Shown here: piece after piece, positions 483 to 53,910 of the stretch | Layout of the letters: each line of letters starts with the position of its first letter | How positions within the stretch are numbered: the stretch's first letter is position 1 | Origin: an uncultured bacterium | GTDB taxonomy: Bacteria > Patescibacteriota > Minisyncoccia > Phycocordibacterales > GWA1-40-21 | Direction of reading: 5' to 3' | Length of the DNA: 64,000 nt | Assembly (NCBI GenBank): GCA_903831305.1 | Contig: CAIKXE010000004.1 | Location: 9,026 to 73,025, forward strand | Translations under genes and position numbers: made by a program | Notes under the pieces: model-generated | The model's input: the letters and a program-made list of their open reading frames with translations, nothing else | Told to the model about the DNA's origin: nothing | Database searches by the model: none

Positions 483-2300
483 TTATAGCACAATTTCTAC
501 ATCCACAATTCTAAGCCGGAGTTCGGCAAAACCACGGAAGGTGGATTTTTCAAAGTTGGCCAGAAGGTTTATTCTATTGCCCACTTTTAGGGCGGGTCCA
601 TAATCAGTGTCCTTGGTAAAAAAACCAATTGCTTTGACGTCCCGCCCGCGGGAATTTTTAAATAACAACTCCAGATGATTTGCCTCCTTACCAAACATTT
701 TAACGCCTTCAATCATTACCTTTTCAAATAAGAATAAAGGTTTAGGATTCCCTACTCCGTAGGGGGCCAATTTTTCAATCAACCGATAATTTTCATTTGT
801 CACCTCATCAAAACTAATCTTGGCATCAGCAGTTATTTCTTCAGTCTCGATTTTACTTTTTATAATTACTTTTTCATAAGCTAACTGTAGTTTTTCTTCC
901 AACAAATGAACTTTTTCCTGCACCACGGAAAAACCACCAGACATATTATGCCCACCAAATTCTTCAAATATCCCCGCTTCCACTTCCATCATCAAATCAA
1001 TCACACTGGTACAACCATCACCCCGGCAAGAACCTTTTAAAATATTTCCACCATCCCGGCCCCAGAGAAATACTGGCCGAGCATGATCATCCACTAAAGA
1101 GTTAGCCACCAGCCCCAAAAGAGATGGCTTCCACTCTGGATTGCCGATAACTACAACTTTTTTTTCGGTCGTACCGTCAGAATATCTCTCCCGCATTATC
1201 TTCCGGACTTCTTTGACTATTCCCGCCACTACCCCTTTTCTTTCATTATTAATATGATCCAAGTGGCGAGCTAAAATATCCGCTTCTTCATCTGTCTTGG
1301 CCACAAATAATCTAAAAGCATCCTCTGGGTCACCCATCCGCGAAGCGGCGTTAATTCGTGGTGAAATAGAAAAACCGATATCATCCTCGGTAATATTTTT
1401 TTGCTCAATTTTTAACAAAGACAAGAGTTTCATTAGTCCCACCCGCGGAGATTTACGCAAAACCTTTAAACCATAAAATGCCAAAGCTCGGTTCTCCCCA
1501 ACGAGCGGAACCATATCAGATAAAGTAGCAATCCCCACCATGTCTAAAAACCATTTTTCGTGACCGCTTTTAATTGCTGACAAAATACCCAGAATACCCT
1601 CGGAATGATTAGCCCGCCTGCCGACTTCTAATGGCGGGCAGGTCTGCGTTAAATGGAGAGGGTGTTGTGGGGATTTTGTCAGCAACATGGCTTGAACTAA
1701 TTTGAAGGCCACACCGGCCCCACATAAATCTTTAAATGGATATTTACTATCTGTCCGCTTGGCGTCAATGACAGCGATGGCATCCGGCAAAACCTTACCT
1801 GGTTCATGGTGATCTGTAATAATCACATCAATTCCGTGCTCCTTTGCCCGAGCCACCTCGGCCACATCCGCAATGCCACAATCTACGGTAATAATCAAAC
1901 CTACTTTATCTACTTTAAACTTCTCTATCGCCTCATGATTTAAACCAAATCCCTCCAAGTGCCGATGTGGAATATAATTGGCAAAATCCGCATAACCAAT
2001 TTTTTCAAAAAAATCATGGAGGATTACTCCCCCGGGAATACCATCCGCATCATAATCACTGAAAATAACTATTTTTTCTTTTTTTTCGATTGCCAGCAAA
2101 ATCCGCTCCACGGCAACAGCCATATCAGGTAAAAGAAATGGATCATTTAAATCTCGTTCATAATCCGGCTCTAAAAACTCTTCGGTTTCCTCCTTAGTTT
2201 TGATTCCCCGGTTCCACAGTAAAATTTTTAGCAATTCTGGATACCCGGCTAGTTGTTCTAACCTTTTTTCATCTCTAATTTTTGACTTAAACTCTGACAT
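483..2300 (-). CDS. recJ: Single-stranded-DNA-specific exonuclease RecJ (DHH/DHHA1)
   Basis: 605 aa. DHH motif region IVIFSDYDADGIPGG...VDCGIADV...ITDHHEP. Domain order and size match RecJ. Confidence 0.85.
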   Translation of the reverse strand: MSEFKSKIRDEKRLEQLAGYPELLKILLWNRGIKTKEETEEFLEPDYERDLNDPFLLPDMAVAVERILLAIEKKEKIVIFSDYDADGIPGGVILHDFFEKIGYADFANYIPHRHLEGFGLNHEAIEKFKVDKVGLIITVDCGIADVAEVARAKEHGIDVIITDHHEPGKVLPDAIAVIDAKRTDSKYPFKDLCGAGVAFKLVQAMLLTKSPQHPLHLTQTCPPLEVGRRANHSEGILGILSAIKSGHEKWFLDMVGIATLSDMVPLVGENRALAFYGLKVLRKSPRVGLMKLLSLLKIEQKNITEDDIGFSISPRINAASRMGDPEDAFRLFVAKTDEEADILARHLDHINNERKGVVAGIVKEVRKIMRERYSDGTTEKKVVVIGNPEWKPSLLGLVANSLVDDHARPVFLWGRDGGNILKGSCRGDGCTSVIDLMMEVEAGIFEEFGGHNMSGGFSVVQEKVHLLEEKLQLAYEKVIIKSKIETEEITADAKISFDEVTNENYRLIEKLAPYGVGNPKPLFLFEKVMIEGVKMFGKEANHLELLFKNSRGRDVKAIGFFTKDTDYGPALKVGNRINLLANFEKSTFRGFAELRLRIVDVEIVL

Positions 2301-4188: not shown

Positions 4189-5199
4189 TTATGGGGCTAA
4201 ACAAATAACACCAGCTACACAACCATTAATAGTCCACTCACACCGTTTAGGGGTCGTTAGATTTTGCCAAGAATTATTACAAGCAATAGGAGGGGCCATA
4301 CCCAACGAAGCACAAGTATTGTTATTGGCAATCCTTGTGGGAGGGCAAGCTGATGCAGGTATCGATGGCTCTACCACCATAAAAGAAAGTGTAGTCTCTA
4401 CCTGTGCAGTAGAACAGATACCATCATTAGGACGAGAACAATAAAACTTAAAGGTTAAACTATGCGGACCCGTACCACTCGGAGCAGTCAGACTAGCCGT
4501 CCATAATTTAGTTAAAGAATCATAGCTACCTATACTATAATTTGTTCCGCCATCAAATGAGTATTGGATACCAAAACCTCTATCAGGACCAGTAGACCCG
4601 CCGTCAGAGGCTGTTGCACTAATAGTGTAATTCATTGACCCTCCAGGAATGTATGAGGAAACACCACCACTAACACTAATAGAACCAGCTGTTAAGGAAG
4701 TAATTACGGCCGGTGGTAGCCCATCTACGTCTCCACAGTCAACAGAGTTTGGCGCACTATCTCTAGCTTGTGACTTACCCGTACTATCCACACACCACCC
4801 ACCACCAGTCACTAGGGCATGCCACATAGAATAAGCCGTGATTTCTTTATTTGCCAAGGCATTGGAATAACAGGTAGGAACAACAGATAAACCATCAGTC
4901 GCCGGCCAAGCAGAAGGAGTCATTAAACCCTTAAGGGCAGAATTATTAACCATACCCTCACAACCATTATTAGTATTAGCTAGACCATAACCACCATTAC
5001 TGCTAAAAGCCAGACCAGTGGCCGCCCTAATACTTGATAACTGACTTTTAATAACAGTATCTTTAGATTTATTCCGCGCGGAATTTATAAAAACTAAAAC
5101 AATAGAAGTTAAAAAGGCGATGATGGAGATAACAACCAAAAGTTCTATGATAGTAAACCCTCGGTTCTTACTCTGTGAGTATGTAAAATCTTTTTTCAT
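4189..5199 (-). CDS. Type IV pilin-like protein, paralog of 2368..4107
   Basis: N-terminus NRGFTIIELLVVISIIAFL carries the prepilin motif. The block SARNKSKDT(V/L)IKSQLSSIR...GCEG(M/L)V.NSA...MWHALVTGGGWCVDSTGKSQA is shared with the upstream paralog. The C-terminus is Cys-rich. Confidence 0.7.
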   Translation of the reverse strand: MKKDFTYSQSKNRGFTIIELLVVISIIAFLTSIVLVFINSARNKSKDTVIKSQLSSIRAATGLAFSSNGGYGLANTNNGCEGMVNNSALKGLMTPSAWPATDGLSVVPTCYSNALANKEITAYSMWHALVTGGGWCVDSTGKSQARDSAPNSVDCGDVDGLPPAVITSLTAGSISVSGGVSSYIPGGSMNYTISATASDGGSTGPDRGFGIQYSFDGGTNYSIGSYDSLTKLWTASLTAPSGTGPHSLTFKFYCSRPNDGICSTAQVETTLSFMVVEPSIPASACPPTRIANNNTCASLGMAPPIACNNSWQNLTTPKRCEWTINGCVAGVICLAP

Positions 5200-6600: not shown

Positions 6601-7357
6601 TCTTTAGCAATTCACCAAACTTTCTGGCGTTCAAACTCTCTCGGCCGACCAAAAGACCCTGAATCTGGCCGGAGATAATCATCTCGCGAGCATTATTGTG
6701 ATTCACCGAACCGCCATAAATAATAGGCACGGTAATAGCCACCTTTTGATCATAAATTTCAGTCAAAACTTTTTTTATAAATATTGATGTTTCATAAATA
6801 TCCCCCGGTTTCATCGCCTCCTCTTCACCCTTACCGATCGCCCAAAGAGGCTCATAAGCTATGATTATTTTAGTTAAAAATCTTTTGGGTAATTTGCCAA
6901 GGGAATTAATAATTTGCCCACGTAAAAAATGCAGATAATCCCCGTGCAGGTCTCTCTCTTTTTCCCCTATGCACAAAATTGTTTTCAAACCCACTTTGCT
7001 GGCCGAAGATACTTTCTTGGCCACTACTTCATCTGTCTCCCCTAATTCCCGTCTTTCAGAATGACCTAATATTACATAGCCTTCGCCTGATAACATTCCT
7101 CCACTTATTTCACCAGTATAAGATCCGCTCTTTTCCCAAAACATATCCTGCGCCCCCAAAATAACAGCCGAGGAAGCCAAACCAGAATTTACTTTCTCCA
7201 AGTCAGATAAATAAACATAAGGTGGACAAATCACTACCTGAGTATTCTTTAAAGCCTTAGTCTCCTTCTTTATATCTTTAAAAATAGTTAAAGCGGAGCT
7301 GACATTTTCCGGATTCATCTTCCAATTTCCCACCACCAATATCTTATTTTTCTTCAT
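6590..7357 (-). CDS. tpiA: Triosephosphate isomerase
   Basis: ILVVGNWKMN...GHSERR...IAYEPLWAIGKG...GGS are the diagnostic TIM motifs. The start is the internal Met (MKKNKILVVGNWKMN) rather than the first Met of the track ORF. Confidence 0.85.
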   Translation of the reverse strand: MKKNKILVVGNWKMNPENVSSALTIFKDIKKETKALKNTQVVICPPYVYLSDLEKVNSGLASSAVILGAQDMFWEKSGSYTGEISGGMLSGEGYVILGHSERRELGETDEVVAKKVSSASKVGLKTILCIGEKERDLHGDYLHFLRGQIINSLGKLPKRFLTKIIIAYEPLWAIGKGEEEAMKPGDIYETSIFIKKVLTEIYDQKVAITVPIIYGGSVNHNNAREMIISGQIQGLLVGRESLNARKFGELLKNVD

Positions 7358-7391
7358 CCTAAAATTATACCATAAAATAAAAATTATATGG

Positions 7392-10298
7392 CTAGTTACG
7401 AACACAGCGGACAGAAAAACCATAATCTTTATCATGAGTGCTATTACGCTCAATAGTGGGTAGGCCTGACTCTAATATACGTGACCAGGCCCTGTTATTA
7501 CCATTCGGAGTAGATGACCAGATATAGGCGGCCGAATCCAAAAAGTTAAATCGGCTCGTATTTGTTGAAGGATAACGGTAACCAGACAGAAGAGCCTTAA
7601 ACAGTCCTACCCCTGATTTTAAAGTAGTACCCTCATTTGTTCCGCGATCGCCGGTGGTAGTCGTATCATAAGGAAAATCCGTAGTGCAAGTCCCTGAAGT
7701 ACAAACCGTCCGTTCCAGAGTGGTAAACTCCTCATGAGTAGGGATATGCCAGCCGGCCGGGCAGAGACCTTGGGTCCCGGGTGTCGTTATGCCACACATC
7801 GCCTGAGTCCACTGATATAAACCACCGTCACTGGTACAGTTGCTTTCAGTGTTACTATAACAATATTTTCTGATTGTGGTGCAGGTATTATTTTGATTAC
7901 TAGTAGCTGAAATAATAGTTCCGACATTTATATTTTCCGCCATCCAGCATTGGAGACCAATCAAGTTTATAGCGTAAGATTTGCCGTCTCTCGTATCCAA
8001 GGTAGTTCCACTACAATTTTCTAGCCAAACAGCGTATAAGGTACTACTAGATACACCCATGCTATATGTCCCCGTATCAGGATAAGCGATACTTCCTATT
8101 GTACTGGTGGCCCAACCAGCAAAGAAATATCCATCTCTGGTAAAACTGTTAGCAGTCAAACTTGCTTCCTCCCCGGTTACTATTATTTGAGGGGTCATGA
8201 CTCCCGTACCACCATTAGCATTAAAAGAAACAGCCGGACCCAGAGCCACCCACTCGGCATATAGGGTCACATTAGAGGCACCAATAATGAAGGCTGAGGA
8301 AGTGGCACGGCTAGTACCAGTACCATCAAGTGAAGTATTCCAACCAGAAAAATAATAACCGGTCCGAGCCAGATCCTCAGTGTTATCAAGGACCGTCACA
8401 ATATCACCTACTTCATAAGCATTGTGATCTACCGGGACAAAACCTCGAGTGTTACTGTTACCACTATAAGTGACCGTATAAACACTGACTGGGGTATATT
8501 CACTGGGAGTAAAAGCGATTTCTCTTTGTTGCCATGAGCTATTAATATTTATAGTCTCGCTCACGGGCTGATAGTCAGCCTTGGCCAAAGACAAATTATA
8601 ATTACCAGACAAAAGACCAGTAAAGAAAACCTGGCCGGGTGGTACACAGTCCGAGGTAAAGGTAAACGACACATCTGAAACCGTGGGCGTTTTAGTCAGA
8701 TCCGCCGTTTGTAAAAATATTTTATAACGTAAATAGCGGTCTCCATCATGATTTGAGTTTATCTCTTGACTGGTCACCGTATAAAAAGTGTCAGCCGTAC
8801 CATCTGGTCCCTTAAAATTCCAAACTTCACCACCACTATTGGTCGCCACTTGAAGCCGAATACTATCCAATCCCGTCTCCGCTGGCTGATCCTCTGGCTG
8901 CCACGAAATTTTATGAAAATTACTAGCTGACCCCGTATCAAAAGTAGAGGAGATAAGCCAAGTAGAAGTGGCATATTCACCCAAGGTGCTTTTTAGTTTA
9001 ATGGTTCCACCAAAACTAGAAATATCCGCATTACCGTCGGAGTCAAAATATTTGGCCGGATCAGAAAAATGGTCTTGACCAGCTCCACCAGCCCAATCCG
9101 TCTGACGTAAAAAGCCTCGGCCAGTAATGTAGGTCGTATCATACTCTGCCCCGGTCAGATTTACCGCTACCTCAGAAAGAGGCAGCCCCGTGGAAACATC
9201 TTTAACCGTGATAAGCAAGCTCTGCGGACTCTTAGGGCTAAGAATCAGCTTGACGGTCTGGATAGTATCAGGGCTCAAGGTAAAAGTATTGGCCGGAATA
9301 ACCCCAGCCAGATCATAAGTATCATCTGTCGTGGTTAGCTTGTAGGTATCCCAATCTAGGCCGGTGATACTTTCCTCCCCAGCACTATCAGTCGTAAATA
9401 AATCATCAAATTTGTAAATGTCCACTCCAATCAGTTTTTCACCGTGCAAAGAAAAATCAAAATTTGGCACAACCAAACAAGTATCACTGACGCTTGATAT
9501 CTGGAGAGTACTGGCTTTATCTATAAAAAAACTAATTTGGGTCAATTGTTGGAGACTGACCGTGGCATGGGTTTTGACCGGGTTTGGGTTAGCTGGCTCG
9601 CCGACGGGATATGTCCGCTCGGTAGTATAACCATCTTTAGAAACCGTTATCTCATAGACCTGTACCCCGGGTGGGGCATCCACAATCTGTAGCAAACCAT
9701 CATTATTAGTCACATCATCAATGACAAAGCTTGGCACAACACTATTATTTTCCACGTGGACGGAAGCACCCGGTAAGGGCACGCCATTGGCATCAAAAAC
9801 CTTGATAAACAAGGCGCCGTTAGTGGAAGCACTTTCCAGATTTTTAGGACCAATATAAGTAGTCACATTTATCGGAGGGAAATTACGGCATAAAGCACAG
9901 GTTATCTCTAATTCGGCTAATTTATAATCCGCTGGTGAGGTATCATTGACCATTCCACCGAGCTCCCCGTCAAAGGGGTCATCAATGTTTCTGATAGTTG
10001 TTATAACGACAAATTCCTTACCGTCACGAATCAAAGTCTGAGTATAAGGGATCTTGCCGGGGGGCAGGCCTCCAGCGATACCGACATCAGCATAAGGCAG
10101 ATTCCGCATTATTTCAAACTGTTCATTGGCCAAAGCAGTAGCGGTCACTTTTATACGCGAAACCCGTATTACGTCCATTGCTAATTTGTAACCCTGATAA
10201 ACAGAGAGCGCCAAAATAACAAAAATAGCACTACCAACTAAGACCTCTACCAAAGTCATCCCTTTATTTTTTACTCTAAAAAAATTTAACTTGAACAT
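7392..10298 (-). CDS. Pseudopilin/pilin N-terminal domain protein with B-repeat and a C-terminal Fibrobacter-succinogenes-major-paralogous (FISUMP) domain; putative pilus-displayed adhesin
   Basis: 968 aa. N-terminus KNKGMTLVEVLVGSAIFVILALSV is a prepilin-type leader. YSGNSNTRGFVPVDHNAYEVGDIVTVLDNTEDLARTGYYFSGWN is a Listeria-Bacteroides repeat. The C-terminus CWMAENINVG...DGGLYQW...CPAGWHIPTHEEFTTL...YRY...YIWSST matches the FISUMP consensus. Confidence 0.65.
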   Translation of the reverse strand: MFKLNFFRVKNKGMTLVEVLVGSAIFVILALSVYQGYKLAMDVIRVSRIKVTATALANEQFEIMRNLPYADVGIAGGLPPGKIPYTQTLIRDGKEFVVITTIRNIDDPFDGELGGMVNDTSPADYKLAELEITCALCRNFPPINVTTYIGPKNLESASTNGALFIKVFDANGVPLPGASVHVENNSVVPSFVIDDVTNNDGLLQIVDAPPGVQVYEITVSKDGYTTERTYPVGEPANPNPVKTHATVSLQQLTQISFFIDKASTLQISSVSDTCLVVPNFDFSLHGEKLIGVDIYKFDDLFTTDSAGEESITGLDWDTYKLTTTDDTYDLAGVIPANTFTLSPDTIQTVKLILSPKSPQSLLITVKDVSTGLPLSEVAVNLTGAEYDTTYITGRGFLRQTDWAGGAGQDHFSDPAKYFDSDGNADISSFGGTIKLKSTLGEYATSTWLISSTFDTGSASNFHKISWQPEDQPAETGLDSIRLQVATNSGGEVWNFKGPDGTADTFYTVTSQEINSNHDGDRYLRYKIFLQTADLTKTPTVSDVSFTFTSDCVPPGQVFFTGLLSGNYNLSLAKADYQPVSETININSSWQQREIAFTPSEYTPVSVYTVTYSGNSNTRGFVPVDHNAYEVGDIVTVLDNTEDLARTGYYFSGWNTSLDGTGTSRATSSAFIIGASNVTLYAEWVALGPAVSFNANGGTGVMTPQIIVTGEEASLTANSFTRDGYFFAGWATSTIGSIAYPDTGTYSMGVSSSTLYAVWLENCSGTTLDTRDGKSYAINLIGLQCWMAENINVGTIISATSNQNNTCTTIRKYCYSNTESNCTSDGGLYQWTQAMCGITTPGTQGLCPAGWHIPTHEEFTTLERTVCTSGTCTTDFPYDTTTTGDRGTNEGTTLKSGVGLFKALLSGYRYPSTNTSRFNFLDSAAYIWSSTPNGNNRAWSRILESGLPTIERNSTHDKDYGFSVRCVRN

Positions 10299-10348: not shown

Positions 10349-10975
10349 ATGAAGAGTTCTTGGCCTAAAAAAAATAATCTTCAAGCTGGTTTTACCCTTA
10401 CCGAGATTTTAGTCGTTTCCTTTATCCTAGTCATTGTTGGCATAGCAATTGTCAACTTTCAAATAGATCTTTTCTCTTTAAACAAAGTTTCCAGTGATAA
10501 TATTGTAGTCCAAGAAGAAGCCAGAAGGGTACTCAAGGCCCTCACGGCCGAGGCCCGCGGTATGTCACCCTCCAATATGGGGGCATATGCTTTAGCCGAG
10601 ATTGGCACTTCTACAATTACCTTTTATACCAATACAGATAATGATACACTCCAAGAACGTGTCCGCTACTTTTTGGCTGGTACTACCCTTAAAAAAGGTG
10701 TCATTGAGCCAACGGGTACTCCGCTAACTTACAATACAAATAATGAAGTGATACGTGAGGTAGTGCACGACATAGCCAACGGTACAACTTCTATTTTCAC
10801 TTTTTTTGATACTAATTATGACGGCACATCACCCGCTTTATCAGAACCAATCAACCTACCGAGCATCCGTCTAATTAAAATAAACCTCATCATTGATCGT
10901 GACCCACTAAAGTTGCCGGCTCCTTTATCTATGACGACACAAGTATCTATGCGTAATCTCAAAGACAATCTATGA
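10349..10975 (+). CDS. Minor pilin / pseudopilin-like protein (prepilin N-terminal domain)
   Basis: LQAGFTLTEILVVSFILVIVGIAI is a G|FTLxE prepilin motif. At 208 aa it is the size of PilW/GspJ-like minor pilins. Confidence 0.6.
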   Translation: MKSSWPKKNNLQAGFTLTEILVVSFILVIVGIAIVNFQIDLFSLNKVSSDNIVVQEEARRVLKALTAEARGMSPSNMGAYALAEIGTSTITFYTNTDNDTLQERVRYFLAGTTLKKGVIEPTGTPLTYNTNNEVIREVVHDIANGTTSIFTFFDTNYDGTSPALSEPINLPSIRLIKINLIIDRDPLKLPAPLSMTTQVSMRNLKDNL

Positions 10976-12393
10976 TTATAAAAAAAATAAAAAAACGGGG
11001 CTATATTCTGATACAAGTAATTATCTTTGCTTCTATTTCTACTTATATTCTAGGGGCCCTGATCAGCTGGGCCGCCACTGATATCAAAGCCTCCAAACAA
11101 GCGGCTGACCGCGAGCTTGCCATCCAGATAGCTGAAGCCGGCATTGATTATTATCGTTGGCATTTAGCACATGCCCCGACAGACTATCAAGACGGCACTG
11201 AGCAAACCAGCACCTATATCCATGATTTTTTAGATAAAAATGGCACAGCCATCGGTCAATTTGCTCTAGATATTACACCGCCACCACTTGGATCAAGTCT
11301 AGTAACCATCAGATCCACTGGCAGTGTTTTAAAGACTCCAAATCTGACAAGGACGATTCAGGTCAAGTTAGCCAAGCCATCTATGGCCAAATTTGCCGTA
11401 GTGGCCAATGACTACATGCGCTTTGGAGAAGGAACGGAAGTTTTTGGTCCGATTCACTCTAACAAAGGTATTCGTTTTGATGGGCTAGCCCACAACATAG
11501 TTTCCAGTTCTGTCATTACGGCTAATGACCCGGACCATACAGGCAATGAAGAATTTGGGGTCCACACCCATGTCACTCCCACTGATCCTCTGCCACCGGC
11601 CAGTATACCAGACCGCTCAGATATTTTTGAAACCGGCCGGGCCGTGGGTATATCAGAAACTGATTTTGATGGAATTACTGGTGATATCTCTCAAATAAAA
11701 ACTCTAGCTCAGGAAGCAACTGGTTTTTGGCGCGCGGGCTCTGGTGCTTTAGGCTATCACGTAATACTGAAAACCAATGACACTTTTGACCTCAAACAAG
11801 TAAACACCATCACAACTGTGAGTTCCTGCAGTGAAAAATGGAGTATCGGCACGGAAACTCTTTTGGGTAATTTTCCTTTCCCGGCTAACGGGATAATATT
11901 TTTGGAAGACCATATTTGGGTGGATGGTAAGATAGATAGTGGCAAGCTCACCATCGTCGCGGCGACTCTACCAGAAAACGCCTCCACCTTGAGAAACATT
12001 ATAGTTAATAATGATTTATTATATACAAAATATGACGGTACGGACGTTATTGGTCTAATTGCTCAGAATAATATTTTGGTTGGTCTTGTTAGTGAGGATG
12101 ATTTACGAATCGATAGCGCCCTGATGGCTCAAAAGGGCAAAGTGGCTAGACTCTCATACAGCCAATCTTGTTCCTCAACTTATTATACGCGCCAGACCAT
12201 TACTCTGTGGGGCATGATTGCCTCCAATGTCAGATATGGTTTTGCTTGGGTTAATATTTCAACTAATCAGTTTATCTCCGGATATGTTAATCGTATTTTA
12301 TATTATGATAGTAATCTACTCTACAGCCCACCACCGAGCTTTCCCCTCACTTCAGACCAATATGTCACTCTCTCTTGGGAGGAGATAAAATAA
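10972..12393 (+). CDS. Pilus-assembly-associated protein (PilX-like N-terminal hydrophobic segment), hypothetical
   Basis: 473 aa. One N-terminal TM segment (GYILIQVIIFASISTYILGALIS). It overlaps the upstream minor pilin by 4 nt, which suggests translational coupling. I recognise no catalytic motifs. Confidence 0.45.
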   Translation: MIIKKIKKRGYILIQVIIFASISTYILGALISWAATDIKASKQAADRELAIQIAEAGIDYYRWHLAHAPTDYQDGTEQTSTYIHDFLDKNGTAIGQFALDITPPPLGSSLVTIRSTGSVLKTPNLTRTIQVKLAKPSMAKFAVVANDYMRFGEGTEVFGPIHSNKGIRFDGLAHNIVSSSVITANDPDHTGNEEFGVHTHVTPTDPLPPASIPDRSDIFETGRAVGISETDFDGITGDISQIKTLAQEATGFWRAGSGALGYHVILKTNDTFDLKQVNTITTVSSCSEKWSIGTETLLGNFPFPANGIIFLEDHIWVDGKIDSGKLTIVAATLPENASTLRNIIVNNDLLYTKYDGTDVIGLIAQNNILVGLVSEDDLRIDSALMAQKGKVARLSYSQSCSSTYYTRQTITLWGMIASNVRYGFAWVNISTNQFISGYVNRILYYDSNLLYSPPPSFPLTSDQYVTLSWEEIK

Positions 12394-12398
12394 GAAAA

Positions 12399-12468
12399 AT
12401 TACCTAAAAAAGTCTCTCTCCACTTAACACCAGAACTAATCGTTCCGTGAGACTTTTTTGGGTAATTT
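12399..12468 (+). terminator. Intrinsic terminator hairpin with a family-E conserved loop (TTAAC..CAGAACTAATCG)
   Basis: attacctaaaaaagtctc...gagacttttttgggtaat. The stem is followed by a T-tract, and the loop carries cacttaacaccagaactaatcgttccg. Confidence 0.5.
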
Positions 12469-12476
12469 AGTAGGTA

Positions 12477-13703
12477 TTACACATTATCCATCACGGAGTA
12501 GATCGGCGCCACCATAGATAGAGCAAAGAAGCCCACCGCCGCCCCAATAATGACCATGAGTACTGGTTCAATAATCGTAGAGAGATCTTTGGTTCTTTCC
12601 TCCACATCTAGTTCATAAAAAATAGCTACCTCAGTCAGCATATTGGACATATTTCCTGTCTCCTCCCCCACGCCCATCATCTCCCCCACAAAGGTCGGAT
12701 AATACTTAGGATTTTTCATAAAAATTGCTGAAATATTTTCTCCCTTCTCCACCGCCTTAGAGGCATCGTCTAGCACTTGCTTATAATAATGGTTTGTTAC
12801 AATATCTTTGGTAATCAAAATAGATTGAGCAATGGGGACGCCCGCCGTCAAAAGTGAGGCCAACGTTCTAGCTACCCGAGCCGAGTTAGCCTCCATAATC
12901 AAGTCCCCCACTACTGGTAATCTGATGACTAAATAATCCCTTAGATTTTTACCCATCATAGTTTTTAAAAAGAGATAAGTACCTGAGACCGCACCAATAA
13001 TAAATAAAATAGTTAAAATCCAGTGCCCCACCAAAAAGTCACTAAGTCCAATGATAACCCGGGTGGTAAAAGGTAATTCTGTATTTAGCTCCTTAAAAGT
13101 AGCAGTAATCCCTGGCACCACAAAGATAAACATCAGTATCCCGACGATGATCATCACAGTCACAATCACCGCTGGATAGATCATGGCTCCCTTTACTTTT
13201 TTCTGCAAACGGTAGGTCTTATCCATTTGCAAAGCCACATTACCCAAGGCATCAGACAAGCCACCGCTCTCCTCACCGGCCTTGGCCATAAAAATAAAAA
13301 GATTGGAAAAAATATTTGGATAACCCCGGAGTGATTCACTTAAAGTTTTACCTTTTTTGATTTCAAGATTAATACCTTCTACAATATTTTTTAGCCGGCC
13401 GGGCTTGCTCTGTCTTTCAATTACTGATAAGGCTCGGCTCAGGGACAGTCCAGACCTGGTCATCGCTGATAAATTTTTTGCAAAAGAAATCTTTTGGGCG
13501 ATGGAAACACCACCCAAGAAACTGAAAATTTTATAAAAATATACCTGCCATTTGGTATGGCTGATTTCCTTAGCTGAAATCAGAACACTACCCTCGGCCT
13601 TGAGGTCATTATATAAGTTAAATTTGCTTTGGGCTTCAACCACCCCTTCGTAACGCTCACCACTTTTTTTTATAGCGCTGAATTTAAAATGCATTTTATT
13701 CAC
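12477..13703 (-). CDS. pilC: Type IV pilus assembly platform protein PilC / T2SS GspF family
   Basis: 408 aa. Duplicated GspF domain architecture with three TM segments. It overlaps pilB by 8 nt. Confidence 0.85.
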   Translation of the reverse strand: MNKMHFKFSAIKKSGERYEGVVEAQSKFNLYNDLKAEGSVLISAKEISHTKWQVYFYKIFSFLGGVSIAQKISFAKNLSAMTRSGLSLSRALSVIERQSKPGRLKNIVEGINLEIKKGKTLSESLRGYPNIFSNLFIFMAKAGEESGGLSDALGNVALQMDKTYRLQKKVKGAMIYPAVIVTVMIIVGILMFIFVVPGITATFKELNTELPFTTRVIIGLSDFLVGHWILTILFIIGAVSGTYLFLKTMMGKNLRDYLVIRLPVVGDLIMEANSARVARTLASLLTAGVPIAQSILITKDIVTNHYYKQVLDDASKAVEKGENISAIFMKNPKYYPTFVGEMMGVGEETGNMSNMLTEVAIFYELDVEERTKDLSTIIEPVLMVIIGAAVGFFALSMVAPIYSVMDNV

Positions 13704-15453
13704 TTATTACCCGAAGCACTTCCTCGATCGTCGTTACCCCCTGGACCGCTTTAAAAATACCATCTTCAATCATACTGATCATCCCCTCTTTTTTAGCCTG
13801 CTCGTTTATTACATGGTCAGGCTCGCCCCGCACCACGAGTTCCTTGATAGTGGGAGTCATCTTTAGCACCTCACAGATACATACCCGCCCACCATAACCA
13901 TCTTTGGATTCAGCTGACTCCTTTGGTTTATAAAAAGGAATAGTTTCGATCGTTTCTTTATCTCCAATTATTTTTTCCTTCTGCAAAAACTCCAGCACCC
14001 GTTTAATATCAATAATCTTGGCCAAGGAGGCTACTTCAGATTTTGACAAAAAGTATTTTTCTTTATTGGCACTTAACCGACGAATGAGCCTTTGAGCAAT
14101 AATCACCTTCACCGTTGAAACAATGAGAAAAGGCTCAATCTTCATGTCCACCAGACGGGGCATAGCCCCAGCCGCCGAATTAGTGTGTAAAGTGGAAAGA
14201 ACCAAGTGCCCAGTCAAAGCCGCATTAATAGCCAGAGAAGCCGTTTCATTATCACGAATTTCTCCGACCATGATGATATCTGGATCCTGACGAACTAAAG
14301 AACGCAAACCATTGGCAAAAGTAAAACCAATTTCTGGTTTGACCTGGGTTTGGTTTATCCGATCCATCTGATACTCTACCGGATCTTCAATGGTAGAAAT
14401 ATTCACATCAGCGGTATTTAAAATATCAAGCAAGGTATAAAGCGTGGTCGTTTTACCGGAACCAGTGGGACCGGTTGTCAATATAAGACCGGTAGTCTGC
14501 TTGATCGCCTCATGTAAAATTTCTAAGGCCTCACCATGAAAACCCATGGCTTCCAAAGTAAAACCAGAAACATTTTCTCGTAACAATCGCATAACCGCCT
14601 TCTCACCAAAATAAGTCGGCAAGATAGAAACACGAAAGGATACCCCCTCTCCATTCACCTCCATTTTAAACCGGCCGTCTTGAGGCAAGCGCTTTTCATC
14701 TAGCTTCAAACTGGCGAGTACTTTGATTCTAGCAATGATACTAGAGGCCACACTTTTTGGCAAAACCATAGCGTCATGCAAAATACCGTCAATCCGGTAA
14801 CGGATCAGTAATTCGTTCTCCAAAACTTCAATGTGAATATCAGAAGCATTTTGTAGAATGGAGTGCTTGAGCAAAGTATCCAAAATACGAATCACCGGTA
14901 AATCCTCTGCCATCTTCTTCAAATCTTCCCCCGTACTACCTACTCCCCGATTATCAATCAGACTCTTAAGCGCCACCGCATCTTTCTGAATAATGTCACC
15001 AAACTCCGCCCGTAAACTTTTCTGATATTGTAACAAAGCGCTTTTGATAGAGTCACTATCTGTCAAACGCAATAGTATTTTCAAGCCAACCTTCTTTTTT
15101 ATAAACTCAATAGATGATAGATCCTTGGTATCAAGCATGGCCACTTCCAAAGTATCACCCTCGCGCCTAAAAGCAATAGCATTATTTTTTCTGGCCACTG
15201 GTTCAGGGATCAACGCTAAAATAACCGGATCAATTTTTTGCCCTTTCAGACTGACAAACGGAATACCTAGGACGTAAGCCTCAGCCCGCCGAAAATCATC
15301 CTCGCTAATCTTGGCATTGTTTATGAGCACGTGGCCAACGGTCAATTTATTTTTACTCCTGCCGGCTTCAGCCATAGCATTTTCATAATCTAGTTCAGTA
15401 ATTAAACCAGAGTCTAAAAGAAATTCCTTGAGCTGCTTTTCTTGAACGATCAT
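13696..15453 (-). CDS. pilB: Type IV pilus assembly ATPase PilB / GspE family
   Basis: 585 aa. Walker A LILTTGPTGSGKTTTLY, a GspE N-terminal domain, and Asp/His boxes. Confidence 0.85.
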   Translation of the reverse strand: MIVQEKQLKEFLLDSGLITELDYENAMAEAGRSKNKLTVGHVLINNAKISEDDFRRAEAYVLGIPFVSLKGQKIDPVILALIPEPVARKNNAIAFRREGDTLEVAMLDTKDLSSIEFIKKKVGLKILLRLTDSDSIKSALLQYQKSLRAEFGDIIQKDAVALKSLIDNRGVGSTGEDLKKMAEDLPVIRILDTLLKHSILQNASDIHIEVLENELLIRYRIDGILHDAMVLPKSVASSIIARIKVLASLKLDEKRLPQDGRFKMEVNGEGVSFRVSILPTYFGEKAVMRLLRENVSGFTLEAMGFHGEALEILHEAIKQTTGLILTTGPTGSGKTTTLYTLLDILNTADVNISTIEDPVEYQMDRINQTQVKPEIGFTFANGLRSLVRQDPDIIMVGEIRDNETASLAINAALTGHLVLSTLHTNSAAGAMPRLVDMKIEPFLIVSTVKVIIAQRLIRRLSANKEKYFLSKSEVASLAKIIDIKRVLEFLQKEKIIGDKETIETIPFYKPKESAESKDGYGGRVCICEVLKMTPTIKELVVRGEPDHVINEQAKKEGMISMIEDGIFKAVQGVTTIEEVLRVISE

Positions 15454-15557: not shown

Positions 15558-18500
15558 CTAAAATTCTGAATTTGATCCACCGCTCTCCACAACCGTGACA
15601 GAAGGATTATTACTACAATAAGCGACCTTAGTACCATCAGTTACCTTAGCGGTTACTGTATTTAGTCCCGTGGTCCTTAAGAAATAATAATATGTATTAT
15701 CAGTACTTGAGCCAGAAATCGGTGTGCCGTGCGGATTGGCCACCGTAATAGGATTATTTCTATTAATTATATACCAAGAGTATTGATACGTCCCGTCTGG
15801 CCCATAGACAGTAGCGGTCCAAAGGGAGTTAGAACCTCGATTGATGATGGGTGAGCTTGGGCTAGTTAATTCCACAGTACAGCTCAAGTCACTTCCTGGG
15901 ACACCCGAGCAATAAGAAATAGTCGTTCCTTTAGTACAAGTCCAATCCCCACTAATATATGGTGATTGGGAGGGGGTAGCACCCCCTATACATTCACCAG
16001 CAGTAGAGCTACAATAATCACCCTCATCCGGATTACCACCGCAGTTCTCGGTACAAGAGACCTCACAAGCTGGACAACTACCACCACAATCCACATCAGT
16101 TTCGTTACCATTTTTTTGACCGTCAGTACAAGTTGGAGACGGTGGAGTGGTAACACTCAAATTAGGACAACCAGCACTTAAAGTTTCAGTTCCACTATTA
16201 ATAGTGGAAGTAGCGGTATAATTCTTAACAGAAGTATAGGAAGTATTAACGACACTGGTAGTAGCACCATTAATATTCGTCCCTGCCCAAAGATAAGTAT
16301 ACGCTCCAATTCCACCAGTAGAGGTAGCGGTCCAAGTGACGGTTTGACCAGTAAGAGCAGTAGCTGGAGTGACAGAACAAGAAGCAGTAAGATGATCCCT
16401 AACTATAACATTGTTTTCGCTAGCACTATTAACACAGTTAGCTGAAGAAGTTTCCGTCCCCCTTGTGATTGTAGCAATACCATAATATGTTCCAGCGGTG
16501 GCATATGAGGTGGTGACGATGGCGGTGTTCTTGCCTGTCAAATTTGTACCGGCCCAGCTATAGGTATAGGCTCCGACTCCACCAGTAGAGGTAGCGGTCC
16601 AGGTCACAGTATCACCAGTGAGGACAGTAGCTGGAGCAACGGTACAGGAGACGGTAAAGGTTCCTGATTTGGTAGCTGAACAAGAAACTTCATTCCCTTG
16701 ATTAGCACAGGTCCAGCTCCAAGAATCAGTACCATCCGAGACGACACCTGAGGTACCAATACTACATTTTTCCGCCAGGGTGCTTGGGGCAGTGGTTCTC
16801 GTAGTCCCATTTGCACTACCACAAGAAGGATAAACGACTGGTGGTGGGGTAAAGGTTGCATTTATTGTGGTGTTAGTATTCAAAACAAAACCACAACCAC
16901 CAGTACCCGTACAACCACCGCCAGACCAACCCTGAAAGGAAGCACCACTGTCAGGTGTAGCTGTTAAAGCAATAGTTGTGCCGACGGGGAAAGTCACGAC
17001 ACAATCCGTAGCTGCAGGTCCACAGAGAATCATGGTGGTGGCGTCAGAGACAATACCGGGGCCAACTCTGTTTATACTCAAAGTCGCGGTTTCCGGAACT
17101 ACAACAGCCGAAGCCGAACAGGTGGAAACATAACAATTATTACTACAAGACCAAGTCCAAGGTCCAGTAGAACCTCCCACCACAGCACTTGCCGTACCAA
17201 TATCACATTTTTCTGTATCAGTATTTGGGGCGGTAGTTCTAGCAGTACCGTTTGCACTACCACAATAAGTGTTTGCTGGCTCAGTAGGAGTATCCATGCA
17301 AGCCGAACACTGTGCATTTAAACCACCATATCGCCCATTACAGTCCCATTTATATGTAGCTCCTTCGTCAGCAACATCAACAAAATCTCCTGTAGGACAA
17401 GTGTCTTTTGGCACACCACAAGTACCATCCACACCGTTAGTCTGTATCTCACAAGAAGAAGTAGCTGTTTTATTATTTACCGAATCTATAACTTTTATGT
17501 TAGCGATGTACTTGGTCGTGCCAGTGACAATATTCTGCAAGAAAGTGGCTGAAGTAGAACTCAGATCACCATTCCAGAAATAATTTGGATTACCGGTGTT
17601 ATAAGAGGTAGCCAGCCAAGAAATCTTTCCACTTGGAATATTTAACGGATCATCATAATATCTAGTACCAGAACAAGAAACCGTTGGGTCTGGAGTAATA
17701 GTCACATGATTATCACATGAAACGGTATATTCATTGGCATCCTGATCAGTCACTGTCACTTGACCATAATAGTCATCAGCCTCAGAGTATGAAGTAGTGG
17801 CGGCAGCGGAGTTGTTGCCAGTCAGATTAGGGCCTACCCAGCTATAAGTATAATCCCCAACTCCCCCAGTAGGAGTAGCCGTCCAAGTGACTGTCTCACC
17901 AATGGCCGCCGTAGATGGACTAACCGAACAAGAAGCTAAAAGTGGGGCCGCCGGGAAAGTCGTACTACAAGATGAAACGTAGCCAGCCGAGGAACATGTC
18001 CATGTCCAAGGAGCATCAATGCCACCAGTGATATCACTAGGGATACCGACTCTACATTTTTCTTCATTAGTGCTTGGAGCAATAGCTGTGGTGGTGGCAT
18101 TAAAAGTACCACAATAAGCAGGTGGTGGTACAGGTGGTGGCGTGACAGTACAAGTCACACTACTTGTTACTTCAGTACAAGTCCAATTCCAAGGACCGTT
18201 GGCATCACCATTTATAGCACTAGCAATACCGACCTGACACTTTTCTTCAGCCGTGTCTGGAGGAGTAGAACGGTCAATACCAGCCGGACGTACCTCATCA
18301 GCAACAGTACCACAGGCAGGATTACAAGGGTTTGATGGTGCACCGAACACCCCTACTGATAGAGCGGACTCTTTAGCTCCTAGATATGAACTGACCATGA
18401 ATAAATCAGTGGCTGAAGACGTGGCGGTGGTAGAAGTGGCGGTAGTGGTAGCGATGCGATTTGTCCCCTTGTAAACGTAATAACCGGTAACACCAGGGAC

Positions 18501-21500
18501 GGTACTCCACCTAATGGTGGTATAACCACCACACTGGCCAGCCGACTCGGCAGTAATAGTAGTAGGTGGACAAGGGGCCGAAGGCACACCATGGACAGCA
18601 CTAGATGATGTAGACTCCTGAGTGCCGAGATATGATCTGACAGTAAAGGTATCAGTGGTGGAGGCCAATAGTGTATAGGCAAGAACGGGCGTAGTAACAA
18701 GAGGGGTGGTCTCAGTACCACGATAGACTTTGTAACCAGTAGTTCCAGGAACTGGGCGCCAAGAAAGAGTGGTGTACCCGCCACACTGGGCAGCAGTGGC
18801 GACAAGGCTAGTTGGCGCCCCAAGATTAAATTGAGCAGTAACAGTAGTGGAGGTACTCATAGTAAAGGTACAAGTGAGAGCTGTTCCACTGCAGACTCCT
18901 CCCTGCCAACCGACAAAAATATGACCAGCGGTGGAGGTGGCAGTGAGAGTGACGGTAGTACCATTAATAACCGAAGTAGAAGTAGCTAAACAAGTTGCCC
19001 CGCAGATAACTCCTCCACCAGACACTGTACCAGTTCCCGTTCCAGTTTTGGTGACAGTTAGGGTAGAGGTACAAGGTCCTGAAGGAACTGCGGTTGCCGA
19101 ACTCGAAAATGCAGACTCTGCATTACCATTGTCAACGGCTTTAACTCGAAAAGTTTGTCCAGCTGTACTACTTGCCACATAAGAAATGTTGACAGTATAA
19201 CGAAGAAGTGTAAAAACAACATCGTTACTACTGACATAGATATTGTATCCTTTAGCACCAGGAATAGTGCCCCAGTTTAGAGAAATATTTCCCCCGCAAG
19301 AGGCAGAAGTAGTAGCCGTAAGATTAGGTGCTCCAAGGCCAAACCTGGCAAAAACAGTAGTGGTTGTACTCATAGTAAAGGTACAAGTAAGAGCTGTGCC
19401 ACTACATCCCCCTCCTGACCAGCCGACAAAGGCACTACCAGTAGTAGGGGTGGCCGTGAGAGTGACAGTAGTACCATTAATAACCGAAGTAGAAGTCGCT
19501 AAGCAACCGGCTCCGCAAGAGATTCCTCCACCAGACACTGTACCAGTTCCCGTTCCGATTTTAGTGACGGTTAGGGTAGAGGTACATGAAACAGAAGGGA
19601 TAGGTGATACTGAGTTTGAGGCGAGTGACTCGGTTTGACCAACATCAACAGCCTTAACTTGAAAATATTGTCCAGTGCTACTTGCTATGTAAGAAGTGGC
19701 GGGAGTCTCATAAAGAGGAGTAAAAACCACGCCATCAATACTTTTATAAATATGATATCCAGCTGCTCCGGGTATAGCGTCCCAGTTTAAAGAAATGTTT
19801 CCCCCGCAAGAGGCAGAAGTAGTAGCCGTAAGATTAGGTGCTCCAAGGCCAAACCTGGCAAAAACAGTAGTGGTTGTACTCATAGTAAAGGTACAAGTGA
19901 GAGCGGTGCCACTGCACCCCCCTCCAGACCAGCCGATAAAAGTGTTTCCAGGAATTGGATTAGCGGTGAGTATAATATCAGCACCAGGAATTACGGTAAT
20001 ACTTGCATTCTTACAATCGGCATCACAATTAATTACTGGAGTAACAGGAATACTAGAAGTACTGGTGACCAAACCAGTTCCAGATGATCCACTTTTACTA
20101 ACAGTTAAGACAGGGTATGGGAGAGAACAGGTAGTACTGGCACCGCCATACTGACCATTACAAGTCCAAAACGAAGTATCAGCAGTGTCTTCCGTATTAG
20201 TAAAAGTGCCTTCAATAGCACAGGTATTTACAACCAACGGCAGACTACAAGCACCAGCGACGGGAACGGGACAAGGAGCTGATGGCACACCATTTACAGA
20301 ATTTGATGATACAGATTCTTGAGTATCAAGATATGATCTGACAGTAAAAGTATCCGTAGTAGAGGCTAATAGAGTATAGCTAGTAACCGTGGTGGTAACG
20401 AGAGGGGTGGTTTCCGTTCCACGATAGACTTTGTAACCAGTAACACCAGTAACCGGCTGCCAAGAAAGAGTGGTAAAGCCTCCACACTGACCTGGGGTGG
20501 CTTGGGCGGTGAGCGAACTAGGTGCAGAAATAGTTTTATACTGACAATTACTAACAATGGCTGGACAGATAAAAACTTCCGACCAAGTACCACCTACGTT
20601 TGTTATTGTCTCCGAACAAGCAATACCATTTGGAGGAATTTTCCCAGCACAGGGAATATAAGGATCTATTACTACTTCACAAGTAGAAGACGCCGAAATT
20701 GAGGAACTATCAGTAGCGGTTACTTCAACAGTATAACGAGTCTTGGTCTGACTATTATATTCCTGCCAAACAGTATTCAATGAATCACCAGGGAGACTAT
20801 TGAGCAAGCTTGTTGGATCACCCTTCCACGTATAGGTGTAAGGAGCGTCTCCATTGGAAGCAGATGCCGTCCACTGAAGAGCATCACCATAATTTTCATC
20901 ATATGAAGACTTACCTAAATACGAACAACTAACATCAAGCCCAGGCCCAACGACAACTTGATTTGAACAGTTACTAAAACTTTCCTTATTTGCCTGATCA
21001 ATCACTTTTACAGAAAAAGCATATGTCCCAGGAGTAGAATAAACAATAGTGGTATTTGCGCTGCTAGTCGTGGCCATTTCTAAACCACTACGCTCATCTG
21101 TAAAGCGATACCGGTATGGAGCTGTTCCATCTGTAGCCACAGCCGTCCAGGTAACCAGTTGCCCCACCTTAGCTGAAGACCTGTTTGCGGAACAAGAAAC
21201 TTTAGGGCTAGGAATAGGGGTAGGGGTAATGATACACGGAGCGGAAGGCACAGCAGTAGCAAAATTGGAAAAGGGTATGTTAGCCGGATCTACTCCCGTT
21301 ATTAGTGGTTTAATGGCAAAGGAGTCTCCAATGACCGCATTTAACTCATATGAAATACCCGTTACTGTAGAAACAAAAACGGTTCCCGACGCATTTTTTT
21401 TATAAACCTGATAACTTGTTATACCCGGAACAGAATTCCAGTTTAAAATAACAAAACCATCACAAACGTCAGATGTTTTTGCCCTAATCTCTACAGGTGG

Positions 21501-24632: not shown

Positions 24633-24745
24633 AATAAATTAATAATTATTAATAATAAATAGCTGGTAAATTAGCCCACCAAGTTTTTATTATAAAAACT
24701 TAAATGAGCAAACTACTGCCTCAGATAATTATACCATACCCCCGC

Positions 24746-24773
24746 TTGACAACAAGGGTAAATTTGCTATACT
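24746..24773 (+). promoter_or_regulatory. Putative sigma70-like promoter for nusA
   Basis: TTGACA, a 16-nt spacer, then TATACT (cttgacaacaagggtaaatttgctatacttg), about 155 nt upstream of the nusA ATG. Confidence 0.35.
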
Positions 24774-24930
24774 TGAGTAGTAAGGTTTCAGTTCGCCCAC
24801 AAAGCGGACTTAATTTTTTATCAAATAATAAGGATGAGGGGTTGGAAGATATAGTTTAATTTTTTTGTCCGGACCCAACCAGACTAAAAAAATTAAATAT
24901 ATCCTTCCACCCCTCCCAAAAATAAACAAC

Positions 24931-26712: not shown

Positions 26713-26800
26713 GAGAGCAAACATATTTGATTTTAAAATGTCTGGCCGAAGTTCTGACGAGGAGATCCGAGGACTTTTAAAATTAAATATGTTTGCTCTC
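26713..26800 (+). repeat. Family A miniature palindromic element, copy 1 (core about 64 bp with 14-bp TIRs, nested in a copy-specific 16-bp inverted repeat)
   Basis: gagagcaaacatattt | gattttaaaatgtctggccgaagttctgacgaggagatccgaggacttttaaaattaaat | atgtttgctctc. The core recurs at 36721-36820 (minus) and 41144-41236 (plus). This copy ends 15 nt upstream of the hppA ATG. Confidence 0.7.
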
Positions 26801-29844: not shown

Positions 29845-30093
29845 ATGGAAAACGAAACAACTAACACCATACCAACAGAAAATAAAGGCGGGTTCGGCGG
29901 TGTAGCCGGAGCGGTCATTATCGTCGCCATTATCATCATTGGTGGTTGGTATTTTATCGGTAATCGTGTGGAAAAAATTCAAGATCAAAAATCAGCCACT
30001 ACTTCTTCCCTACAAATCACCACCGGGACTTCAACTGAGATAGATGACATCCAAACAGACTTGGATAATTTGAATCTGAAAGTTTTGGATTAA
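29845..30093 (+). CDS. Small single-TM membrane protein, hypothetical
   Basis: 82 aa. TM segment GGVAGAVIIVAIIIIGGWYFIG. Confidence 0.45.
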   Translation: MENETTNTIPTENKGGFGGVAGAVIIVAIIIIGGWYFIGNRVEKIQDQKSATTSSLQITTGTSTEIDDIQTDLDNLNLKVLD

Positions 30094-30103: not shown

Positions 30104-30180
30104 AAAAAACCTCCAGCAAACCTTCGCAGCGATTAGTTCTGACGTTAAGCGAAGAAGGTTAGGCTGGAGGTTTTTTGTTT
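30104..30180 (+). terminator. Long intrinsic terminator hairpin; the loop carries the family E core (reverse orientation)
   Basis: aaaaaacctccagc...gctggaggttttttgttt with nested stems ccttcgc/gcgaag(aag)g. The loop agcgattagttctgacgttaa is the reverse complement of ttaacgtcagaactaatcgct. Confidence 0.6.
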
Positions 30181-30186
30181 ACAAAC

Positions 30187-30260
30187 GGAAGCCCAGCAAA
30201 ACAATCTTCTTCGTTTAACGGAGTACCTAATCACTACGAAGATTGTTTACCGGGCTTCCA
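30187..30260 (+). other. Second long hairpin upstream of tig, with a family E-like variant loop
   Basis: ggaagccc/gggcttcc and aaacaatcttc/gaagattgttt stems. The loop is ttcgtttaacggagtacctaatcactacgaa, and ccattttgcatttt follows. Confidence 0.45.
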
Positions 30261-36720: not shown

Positions 36721-36820
36721 CAAAGTAACAAACGTCAAAATTATTTAATTTTAAAAGTCCTCGGATCCCCTCGTCAGAACTTCGGCCAGACATTTTAAAA
36801 TCAAACAATTTTTACTTTGC
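36721..36820 (-). repeat. Family A miniature palindromic element, copy 2
   Basis: The reverse complement contains gattttaaaatgtctggccgaagttctgacgaggggatccgaggacttttaaaattaaat, flanked by caaagtaa/ttactttg. It sits just 3' of the RNHCP gene. Confidence 0.7.
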
Positions 36821-39431: not shown

Positions 39432-39577
39432 ATTAAACCGGAGGTTTAATTAGGACGAGAACGGCGGAGCTATATTTTTTCAGCCGAAAAAATAGCGAGC
39501 CGGTGGCCAGCCTAAAATTTCTGACGAGAAATTTTAAGGCGAGGCCGAGATTCCTACCAAACTTTCACATCAAAAAT

Positions 39578-41236: not shown

Positions 41237-41249
41237 ATACATAATATTT

Positions 41250-41320
41250 AAAATCCCCAGGAAAATCCTCTCCGCTTAACGTCAGAACTAATCGCTCCGA
41301 GGAAATTCCTGGGGATTTTA
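41250..41320 (+). other. Hairpin with the family E conserved loop core
   Basis: aaaatccccagg...cctggggatttt is the stem. The loop ctccgcttaacgtcagaactaatcgctccgagg carries the same 22-nt core as the loop at 30125-30160. Confidence 0.55.
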
Positions 41321-53837: not shown

Positions 53838-53848
53838 AACAAAAAAAC

Positions 53849-53910
53849 CATCATATATTCTCTTCACTTAACGAGGACTAATCGTTCAGAGAACATATGA
53901 TGTTTTTTTA
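53849..53910 (+). terminator. Terminator hairpin between convergent genes, with a family E loop core
   Basis: catcatatattctc...gagaacatatgatgtttttttagg. The loop ttcacttaacgaggactaatcgttca shares ttaacg..ctaatcg with the loops at 12425, 30125 and 41262. Confidence 0.5.

Follow-up and report, generated by a model that had tools for sequence, protein, structure and literature searches.

Family E, a recurrent palindromic hairpin with a conserved structured apex at gene ends in Candidatus Saccharibacteria

The window, a stretch of 64,000 nucleotides of bacterial DNA analysed here at its full length, contains six copies of a long hairpin family denoted family E. Their coordinates, strands, covariance-model scores and gene contexts are as follows.

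E copy 1, 12397..12468, plus strand: 59.4 bits; 20-bp arms and the apex TCTCC AC TTAACACCAGAACTAATC GT TCCGT; makes up the whole junction where ORF 10972-12393 converges with the T2SSF gene 12477-13703.
E copy 2, 30104..30180, minus strand (the motif reads on the minus strand): 58.2 bits; directly 3′ of an 82-aa ORF (29845-30093).
E copy 3, 30187..30260, plus strand: 55.7 bits; core variant GGAGTACC with a GT/AC helix.
E copy 4, 41249..41320, plus strand: 74.5 bits; of all six the most like the family consensus (ccaggAAAATCCTC ... GAGGAAATTcctgg); carries the tandem A.A mismatch; 3′ of the CCA-adding enzyme gene 39503-41140, directly behind the family-A hairpin 41143-41236.
E copy 5, 53842..53909, plus strand: 70.2 bits; 16-nt loop (TTAACGAGGACTAATC) and an AC/GT helix; makes up the whole junction where the ComM-like Mg-chelatase gene 52230-53837 converges with the M23/LysM peptidase gene 53915-54973.
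E copy 6, 1589..1670, minus strand: 35.1 bits, E 7e-9 locally; inside the putative recJ gene.

A sequence-only reading of the window had described copies 1 to 5 as terminator-like hairpins. All five are present where it placed them, the core is common to all of them, and the gene contexts it gave agree with our ORF calls and domain search; copy 6 had been missed. The stems at these five sites are 20-22 bp long, and each hairpin folds far better than its dinucleotide shuffles (z −5.4 to −9). A search of the window with the 20-mer core CTTAACGNCAGAACTAATCG, allowing <=3 mismatches, returned 3 matches where 0.03 are expected, and under the covariance model, built mostly from relatives, these sites reach 55-75 bits (E <= 8e-12).

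Copies 2 and 3 form the back-to-back doublet directly upstream of tig that had been pointed out earlier, copy 2 being its first half (30104-30180) and copy 3 its second (30187-30260). The arm of copy 3 has CCAGCAAA..TTC in common with copy 2, a likeness that suggests local duplication. The core variant GGAGTACC of copy 3 also occurs in the related loci L126, L154 and L184, and the orthologue of copy 2 has the same orientation in L121 and is flipped in L123. Copy 6 is a long form of the element, in which a further GC-rich apical stem (CCTGCCCGCC...GGCAGGCGGG) separates TTAACGCAGAC from CTAATC.

The window also encodes several pilus-type genes, including the T2SSF gene 12477-13703, pilin-like N_methyl proteins (2368-4107 and 4189-5199) and a probable T2SSE gene (13696-15453), assigned by synteny with L125/L243. 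The adjacent 968-aa protein (7392-10298) contains Flg_new, CarboxypepD_reg and Fib_succ_major domains, and a giant ORF of 3024 aa (15558-24632, minus strand) adjoins the type IV pilus genes. Genes are encoded almost all on the minus strand from 1 to 24632 and almost all on the plus strand from 24865, and the GC skew changes sign at ~24000-26000, a region that may be a replication origin or terminus.

We searched for relatives of the element in three ways. A scan of reference genomes used a pattern with 15 specified bases, and 113 of its 115 loci were chance matches; the two real loci with full hairpin context, L007 and L044, both come from Candidatus Saccharibacteria MAGs. Through homologues of the window's trigger factor we reached syntenic contigs whose proteins are 79-88% identical (L121, L123/L124, L125 and L126). 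All of them carry family E, and one of the two Saccharibacteria matches of the first scan lies in the MAG that also contains L126. A more specific pattern, scanned against metagenome contigs, added 116 loci. The resulting sample comprises 755 kb of related Candidatus Saccharibacteria contigs with 127 distinct E hairpins. The family is absent from 63 kb of relatives at 58-74% trigger-factor identity, where plain long terminators sit instead at the same kinds of sites, and its core has 0 matches in viral contigs. On this distribution, the best reading is that family E is specific to one sub-clade of Candidatus Saccharibacteria.

At gathering thresholds, Rfam 15 reports only tRNAs in the window, and permissive Rfam scans of E, long E and family A gave chance-level matches only. 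Family A and the long form of E resemble the hammerhead (CUGANGA) and twister superficially, a likeness that we set aside for want of an Rfam match. In the literature we found no account of such repeats in Saccharibacteria, and a large MITE survey (PMC11602168) makes no mention of this phylum.

Comparison across relatives, which the sequence-only reading had proposed, recovered a full-length consensus from the 127 copies. The 5′ half reads A4-5, (G)CC.CCGG and AAAATCCTC, then TYC RY TTAACGCGGACTAATC; after TTAACGCGGACTAATC the 3′ half continues with RY TMC, then GAGGAAATT, CCGG.GG and T4-5. The whole element spans ~70-85 bp. Its GC-rich outer arm is 7-8 bp long, and the inner arm (AAAATCCTC / GAGGAAATT) is conserved and carries a fixed tandem A.A mismatch. 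The apex opens from the last stem pairs (YTC/GAR) into a 3x3 internal loop, TYC in its 5′ strand and TNC in its 3′ strand, followed by a 2-bp helix and TTAACG(2-4 nt)GAACTAATC. The loop is 16-18 nt or, in the long form, is extended by the additional apical stem. Conservation is highest at the centre and lowest at the ends, yet the A-tract keeps a fixed distance to the core, with >90% A at positions −18 to −21.

Two-sided compensatory changes occur at 21/21 base pairs, and 89.8% of cells in the alignment are paired, against 64% after column shuffles and ~40% with slid partners. The 2-bp helix is itself exchangeable among copies (AC/GT 55, GT/AC 50, GC/GC 17, AT/AT 2, G.T 1, non-pairs 2). The earlier description of a conserved loop of 22 nt is right as to conservation and too narrow as to extent, since about 31 nt are conserved and are structured, with an internal loop, a covarying helix and a 16-18-nt loop. 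The accompanying observation that an ordinary terminator needs no conserved loop holds as well: the apex is conserved beyond what termination needs, and the family is real and non-random. The stems had been called unrelated, which is true within the window's diverged copies and fails across relatives, where the arms have a full-length consensus, fall into sub-families (for example ccgccacaagtttctc / gagaatcttctggcgg) and recur in copies that are at least 90% identical. From the sequences, the E copies of the window genome are probably simply older and more diverged.

Family E is concentrated at the ends of genes. Based on crude ORF calls, the median distance from stop codon to hairpin start is 7 nt, and E occupies 45/110 (41%) of convergent junctions, 39/415 co-directional and 9/102 divergent ones (chi-square p = 2.5e-16). 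Convergent junctions with E have a median gap of 86 nt, and their spacer is essentially all E. A bias towards 3′ ends and convergent pairs, which the sequence-only reading had named as a check, is thus present. So are the T-tracts it had seen: the consensus ends in T4-5 with a mirror A-tract. With its GC-rich stem base (..CCGG.GG), its A/T tracts and its position downstream of genes, E has the architecture of a bidirectional intrinsic terminator, and by this architecture it probably acts as one. Our simple terminator scan, with a loop limit of 8 nt, is blind to E hairpins.

The sites occupied by E differ among close relatives. At several of them the whole hairpin is present in one genome and missing in another: L222 compared with L225/L168, where the empty allele reads TAAAA-T-ATG, and also L233 compared with L136/L193, L212 with L234, L129 with L216, and L191 with L174 and the window. 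The tig/rsmE junction holds E in L121 and L126, and the gap there in the window is 2 nt. Copies at unrelated positions can be nearly the same, with 99 non-orthologous pairs reaching 90% identity or more across 64 nt that take in the arms, and some of these pairs lie on one contig (for example L140/L143). This presence/absence polymorphism and the near-identical copies at unrelated loci bear out the earlier suspicion that something mobile is involved. One spacer may hold different sub-family members (L148 compared with L235/L169), several new copies directly adjoin an older one, and ~20% of copies stand in doublets ~10 nt apart, 10 of 12 of them with their cores opposed. Besides the window doublet (30104-30260), such pairs occur in L140, L146, L154, L176, L196, L203, L212 and others. 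No target-site duplications or element ends could be placed in the filled/empty alignments, which are AT-rich and too diverged.

In L123/L124, an HTH_17 + Fic gene pair (7273-8043) lies between tig and rsmE, extra with respect to the window and L121, and a long-form E copy (7959-8043) sits directly at the end of that insertion. A GIY-YIG ORF of ~89 aa is found directly beside E in two of three loci (L124 11405-11674, L189 1234-1440), a sample too small to interpret.

Orthologous E copies also differ in orientation. Counting reciprocal and so non-independent comparisons, we found orthologous sites with the same orientation 51 times, flipped 33 times and empty 45 times. The clearest flip is between L214 and L234, whose flanks are >90% identical and whose arms are the same, with an asymmetric centre that is exactly inverted, including the inner-arm mismatch. 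An inverted centre within the same arms and flanks means that the E centre flips in place, and we infer that it does so by recombination or template switching between the arms. An invertible promoter switch was considered and rejected, as the invertible centre, ~26 nt, is too short for a promoter.

These polymorphisms bear on what the mobile unit is. The sequence-only reading had raised a small loop-targeting insertion. On such a reading, only an apex of ~35 nt (ATCCTC...GAGGA) would be mobile and would enter the loops of existing terminators, the outer stems being host-specific. One comparison agrees with this: in L201 the apex lies within an outer stem that is a plain terminator, ccGGAAAttccgg, in L202 and L156, so that here the apex alone is missing and the outer stem is shared. 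The spacer between the small gene and tig, where from genome to genome outer stems of similar sequence (aaaaacctcc..) enclose either E, in one or the other orientation, or unrelated inserts of ~100 nt, points the same way, as do the clade's plain terminators, which already consist of an A-tract, 6-9 bp and a T-tract. However, a deletion between GGAAA direct repeats on either side of the apex would explain the L201 case equally well, and most polymorphisms involve the whole hairpin, leaving empty sites of a few nt (L222 compared with L225, L233, L212, L129, L191). Near-identical outer arms recur at unrelated loci, the A-tract stands at a fixed distance from the core, and copies within coding sequences carry full arms. 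We therefore regard loop targeting by the apex as improbable, and on the sequences at hand the whole hairpin is best read as the unit.

Only ~8% of E copies are intragenic. Copy 6 lies in frame in a 605-aa ORF (483-2300, minus strand), called recJ from its sequence, where it encodes ..HPLHLTQTCPPLEVGRRANHSEGILG.. (peptide HPLHLTQT-CPPLEVGRRA-NHSEGILG). L044 and L171 carry short E copies at the same position in recJ, and L218 carries a flipped one. Further in-frame copies occur in rsmE (L121 and L123; the gene is insert-free in the window, L125 and L126), in a murC-like gene (L007), in a methyltransferase gene (L154/L195; empty in L231) and in tsaE (L187), the names of these four genes being taken from reading the translated sequences. 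In the orientation of the noted motif one frame only is open, and it gives (N)PL(R/H)LT(R/Q)TN(R/H)SE. Core sequences scattered through coding DNA with no hairpin around them would have spoken against the original observation; coding copies do occur, and as all of them retain the hairpin, this is not what we find. In-frame copies in genes indicate that E is inserting DNA rather than a signal specific to terminators.

The arms of E carry a strand polarity of their own. In the orientation of the noted motif, A.C mismatches outnumber G.T ones 57 to 16, and every context class agrees; the excess is 51 to 11 at the variable outer positions and 43 to 15 when counted by copies, which share ancestry and are not fully independent. 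On the complementary strand, the A.C mismatches become G.T wobbles, the 3x3 loop becomes GKA/GRA, permitting G.A and A.G pairs round U-A or U.G, and two further wobble pairs are possible in the loop. Folding agrees with this, the complementary strand being the more stable in 109/121 copies by a mean of 4.05 kcal/mol, and the strand that folds better is independent of the host mRNA strand. From the mismatch asymmetry and the strand stability, the constrained form appears to be a single strand of fixed sense with the loop GAUUAGUCCGCGUUAA.

The conserved loop had also been taken to suggest a protein-binding or RNA-RNA interaction module. If E were an RNA module in host transcripts, the terminator loop would bind a protein or an RNA, such as the 10-mer of the family-A loops, and would control mRNA 3′ ends. 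Genomes with diverged arms and flanks do indeed keep the apex, with its covarying 2-bp helix and conserved internal loop; AGTTCTGACG in the window's family-A loops complements the E centre CGTCAGAACT, and wobble pairs are more numerous where the better-folding strand is the mRNA (small numbers). However, in co-directional contexts E has the same orientation as the upstream gene 22 times and the opposite one 15 times. The centre flips between near-identical strains, the wobble polarity tracks the element and not the mRNA, sites vary among relatives while distant relatives manage without E, some copies are translated in frame, and Rfam has no match. Action in host mRNA is accordingly quite unlikely, and recognition of the apex by a protein is plausible on the single strand of the element itself.

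A signal read in duplex or cruciform DNA, either a competence uptake sequence or a site for a nucleoid or recombination protein, would account for the independence of orientation, and the window does encode competence-type genes (type IV pilus, ComM). The Neisseria DUS and Haemophilus USS often form inverted pairs in terminators, as such a signal might. Uptake sequences occur about once per kb, whereas the window has roughly one E per 10 kb; the core hardly ever occurs without its hairpin, and the wobble polarity points to a folded single strand rather than a duplex. With presence/absence variation and in-frame coding copies added, we consider a duplex or cruciform signal highly improbable. 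We also compared the core with integron attC sites, whose RYYYAAC is matched by GCTTAAC, and rejected the likeness: a GTTRRRY partner is missing, conservation is central rather than terminal, and the neighbours are syntenic core genes.

We find no bias of E orientation with respect to gene direction, used as a proxy for replication direction. Strand-specific transposition of the IS200/IS605 type predicts an orientation bias, and in-place flips may erase it.

Family E is accompanied by a second set of hairpins, family A, which is found in the window at three positions.

Family A, 26713-26800, plus strand: hairpin.
Family A, 36737-36812, minus strand: hairpin.
Family A, 41143-41236, plus strand: hairpin directly ahead of E copy 4.

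Family A also occurs in L125, L160, L166, L184 and L212, with 8 distinct copies in about 820 kb. Its outer arms are copy-specific, and its inner arms are conserved and, as written here (TTGTTTGATTTTAAAA / TTTTAAAATTAAATAA), contain two G.T wobbles. Its centre, of 33-46 nt (TGTCTGGCC...GATCCGAGGAC), has TAGTCTGCG / AGTTCTGACG and GCGWCGRGG(C)AGATCC in common with the complement of short and long E. Given these common centre sequences, A and E probably form one superfamily with the same polarity. In the spacer between the small gene and tig, unrelated inserts of ~100 nt are held in E-like outer stems (L125 9815-9960, L126 4160-4300, L123 5960-6110). They look like a third hairpin-embedded family, and the L123 insert has no Rfam match.

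The reading that we favour, and hold to be somewhat more probable than all others together, is that family E is a palindromic repeat, mobile or duplicative and confined to its clade, which also acts as a bidirectional terminator and whose apex is recognised on a folded single strand. The unit is gained, lost, duplicated beside itself and copied to unrelated sites, and survives mostly where it is harmless, that is, after stop codons, mainly in convergent junctions, and sometimes in frame in tolerant protein loops. Service as a terminator to the host would explain both the retention of E and the compensatory evolution of its arms. The apex would be conserved because it is the recognition module for the copying machinery. 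Copies would arise by way of a folded single strand, ssDNA or RNA, with a fixed polarity complementary to the noted motif, and under a model of single-strand recognition the GATTAGTCCGCGTTAA strand would be the one bound. By analogy, such recognition could be likened to the handling of IS200/IS605 and REP hairpins by HUH/Y1 enzymes.

We searched for a candidate enzyme. A Pfam search of 30 window ORFs found no transposase or HUH enzyme, only a Xer-type recombinase. In the 755 kb of relatives, tblastn with an approximate IS200 TnpA sequence and an HUH motif scan gave no match, which is a weak test. More speculative, and rather doubtful, is the proposal that E, family A and the long forms belong to a new class of hairpin elements that move as a folded single strand through an unrecognised enzyme and supply terminators that the host needs. 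The feature recognised would be the apex, with its tandem G.A pairs, 2-bp helix and GAUUAGUCCGCGUUAA loop; the enzyme would be of a type not recognised as a transposase, in a minimal-genome phylum without evident IS; and a large part of the host's bidirectional termination would depend on E and A elements.

Mobile DNA is usually described as scarce in Saccharibacteria and other CPR bacteria, whose genomes are tiny and streamlined. The presence of E in ~40% of convergent junctions, and of its peptides in RecJ, RsmE and TsaE, suggests that selfish or domesticated palindromes still shape such genomes. In practice, E elements could serve as strain-typing markers, and they can break assemblies and mislead gene calling, as with the in-frame copy of ~25 aa in the window's recJ. 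The family is a natural set of compensatory stem variants for the study of terminator design, and its fixed strand polarity and in-place flipping are handles for finding the protein that would recognise the apex.

We compared family E with known systems by description. In function, Rickettsia palindromic elements (RPE), SPRITE and REP/BIME/REPIN elements come nearest to it. Ordinary bidirectional terminators share with it the A-tract, the GC-rich stem base, the T-tract, the position near stop codons and the enrichment at convergent junctions; unlike E, they can do without a structured, conserved apex of 31 nt, are not repeated in near-identical form and are not found in frame in genes.

A MITE in the strict sense has a parent IS, ends in conserved terminal inverted repeats and is flanked by target-site duplications. 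Elements of this kind (Correia/CREE, ERIC, Nezha) resemble E in being small, non-coding, multi-copy, polymorphic in insertion and hairpin-forming, whereas the ends of E are A/T tracts plus a variable 7-8 bp rather than conserved terminal inverted repeats. No parent IS with ends matching E was seen in the window or the loci. A MITE may provide a terminator or become part of a translated fusion (PMC10969869).

In REP/REPIN-RAYT systems the unit is a palindrome of 20-40 nt with a conserved GTAG or CGTC at one end, and strand-specific recognition of a single strand is the model for its mobility (PMC3733652). Like E, REP, BIME and REPIN elements are extragenic palindromes that lie at gene ends, fold into imperfect hairpins whose mismatches are conserved, and frequently occur as inverted doublets. 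In REP, however, the stems are conserved and the loop or spacer varies, and in E the reverse holds; E also has no GTAG or CGTC head, is 2-3 times longer and has variable arms. No RAYT/IS200-like gene was found among the window ORFs, and a weak search of the 755 kb was negative.

SPRITE is a terminator-like repeat of pneumococcus (PMC10969869 / PMC3733652). As described, it is like E in being interspersed and intergenic, in looking like an intrinsic terminator and in often clustering with other repeats, and it differs in belonging to the Firmicutes. For SPRITE, we know of no report that its apex is conserved and structured, that copies lie in frame in coding sequence or that they flip in place.

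RPE elements (Ogata et al. 2000/2002 via PMC10969869) are about 100-150 nt long, with nearly half of them intragenic in some families. They are like E in being small palindromes of a reduced genome that lie between genes and in frame in housekeeping genes, adding a peptide, with no known mobiliser. E, by contrast, belongs to another phylum, is ~75 nt long, is intragenic in ~8% of copies, ends in A/T tracts and has a terminator-like position. Like RPE, E sits in frame in unrelated genes and adds a conserved peptide; the likeness is one of function by analogy, drawn from description, with the E sequence unrelated as far as we can judge. With six copies in the window and 127 in relatives, similar at non-orthologous sites and polymorphic among genomes, we file family E among interspersed palindromic repeats, outside any named family.
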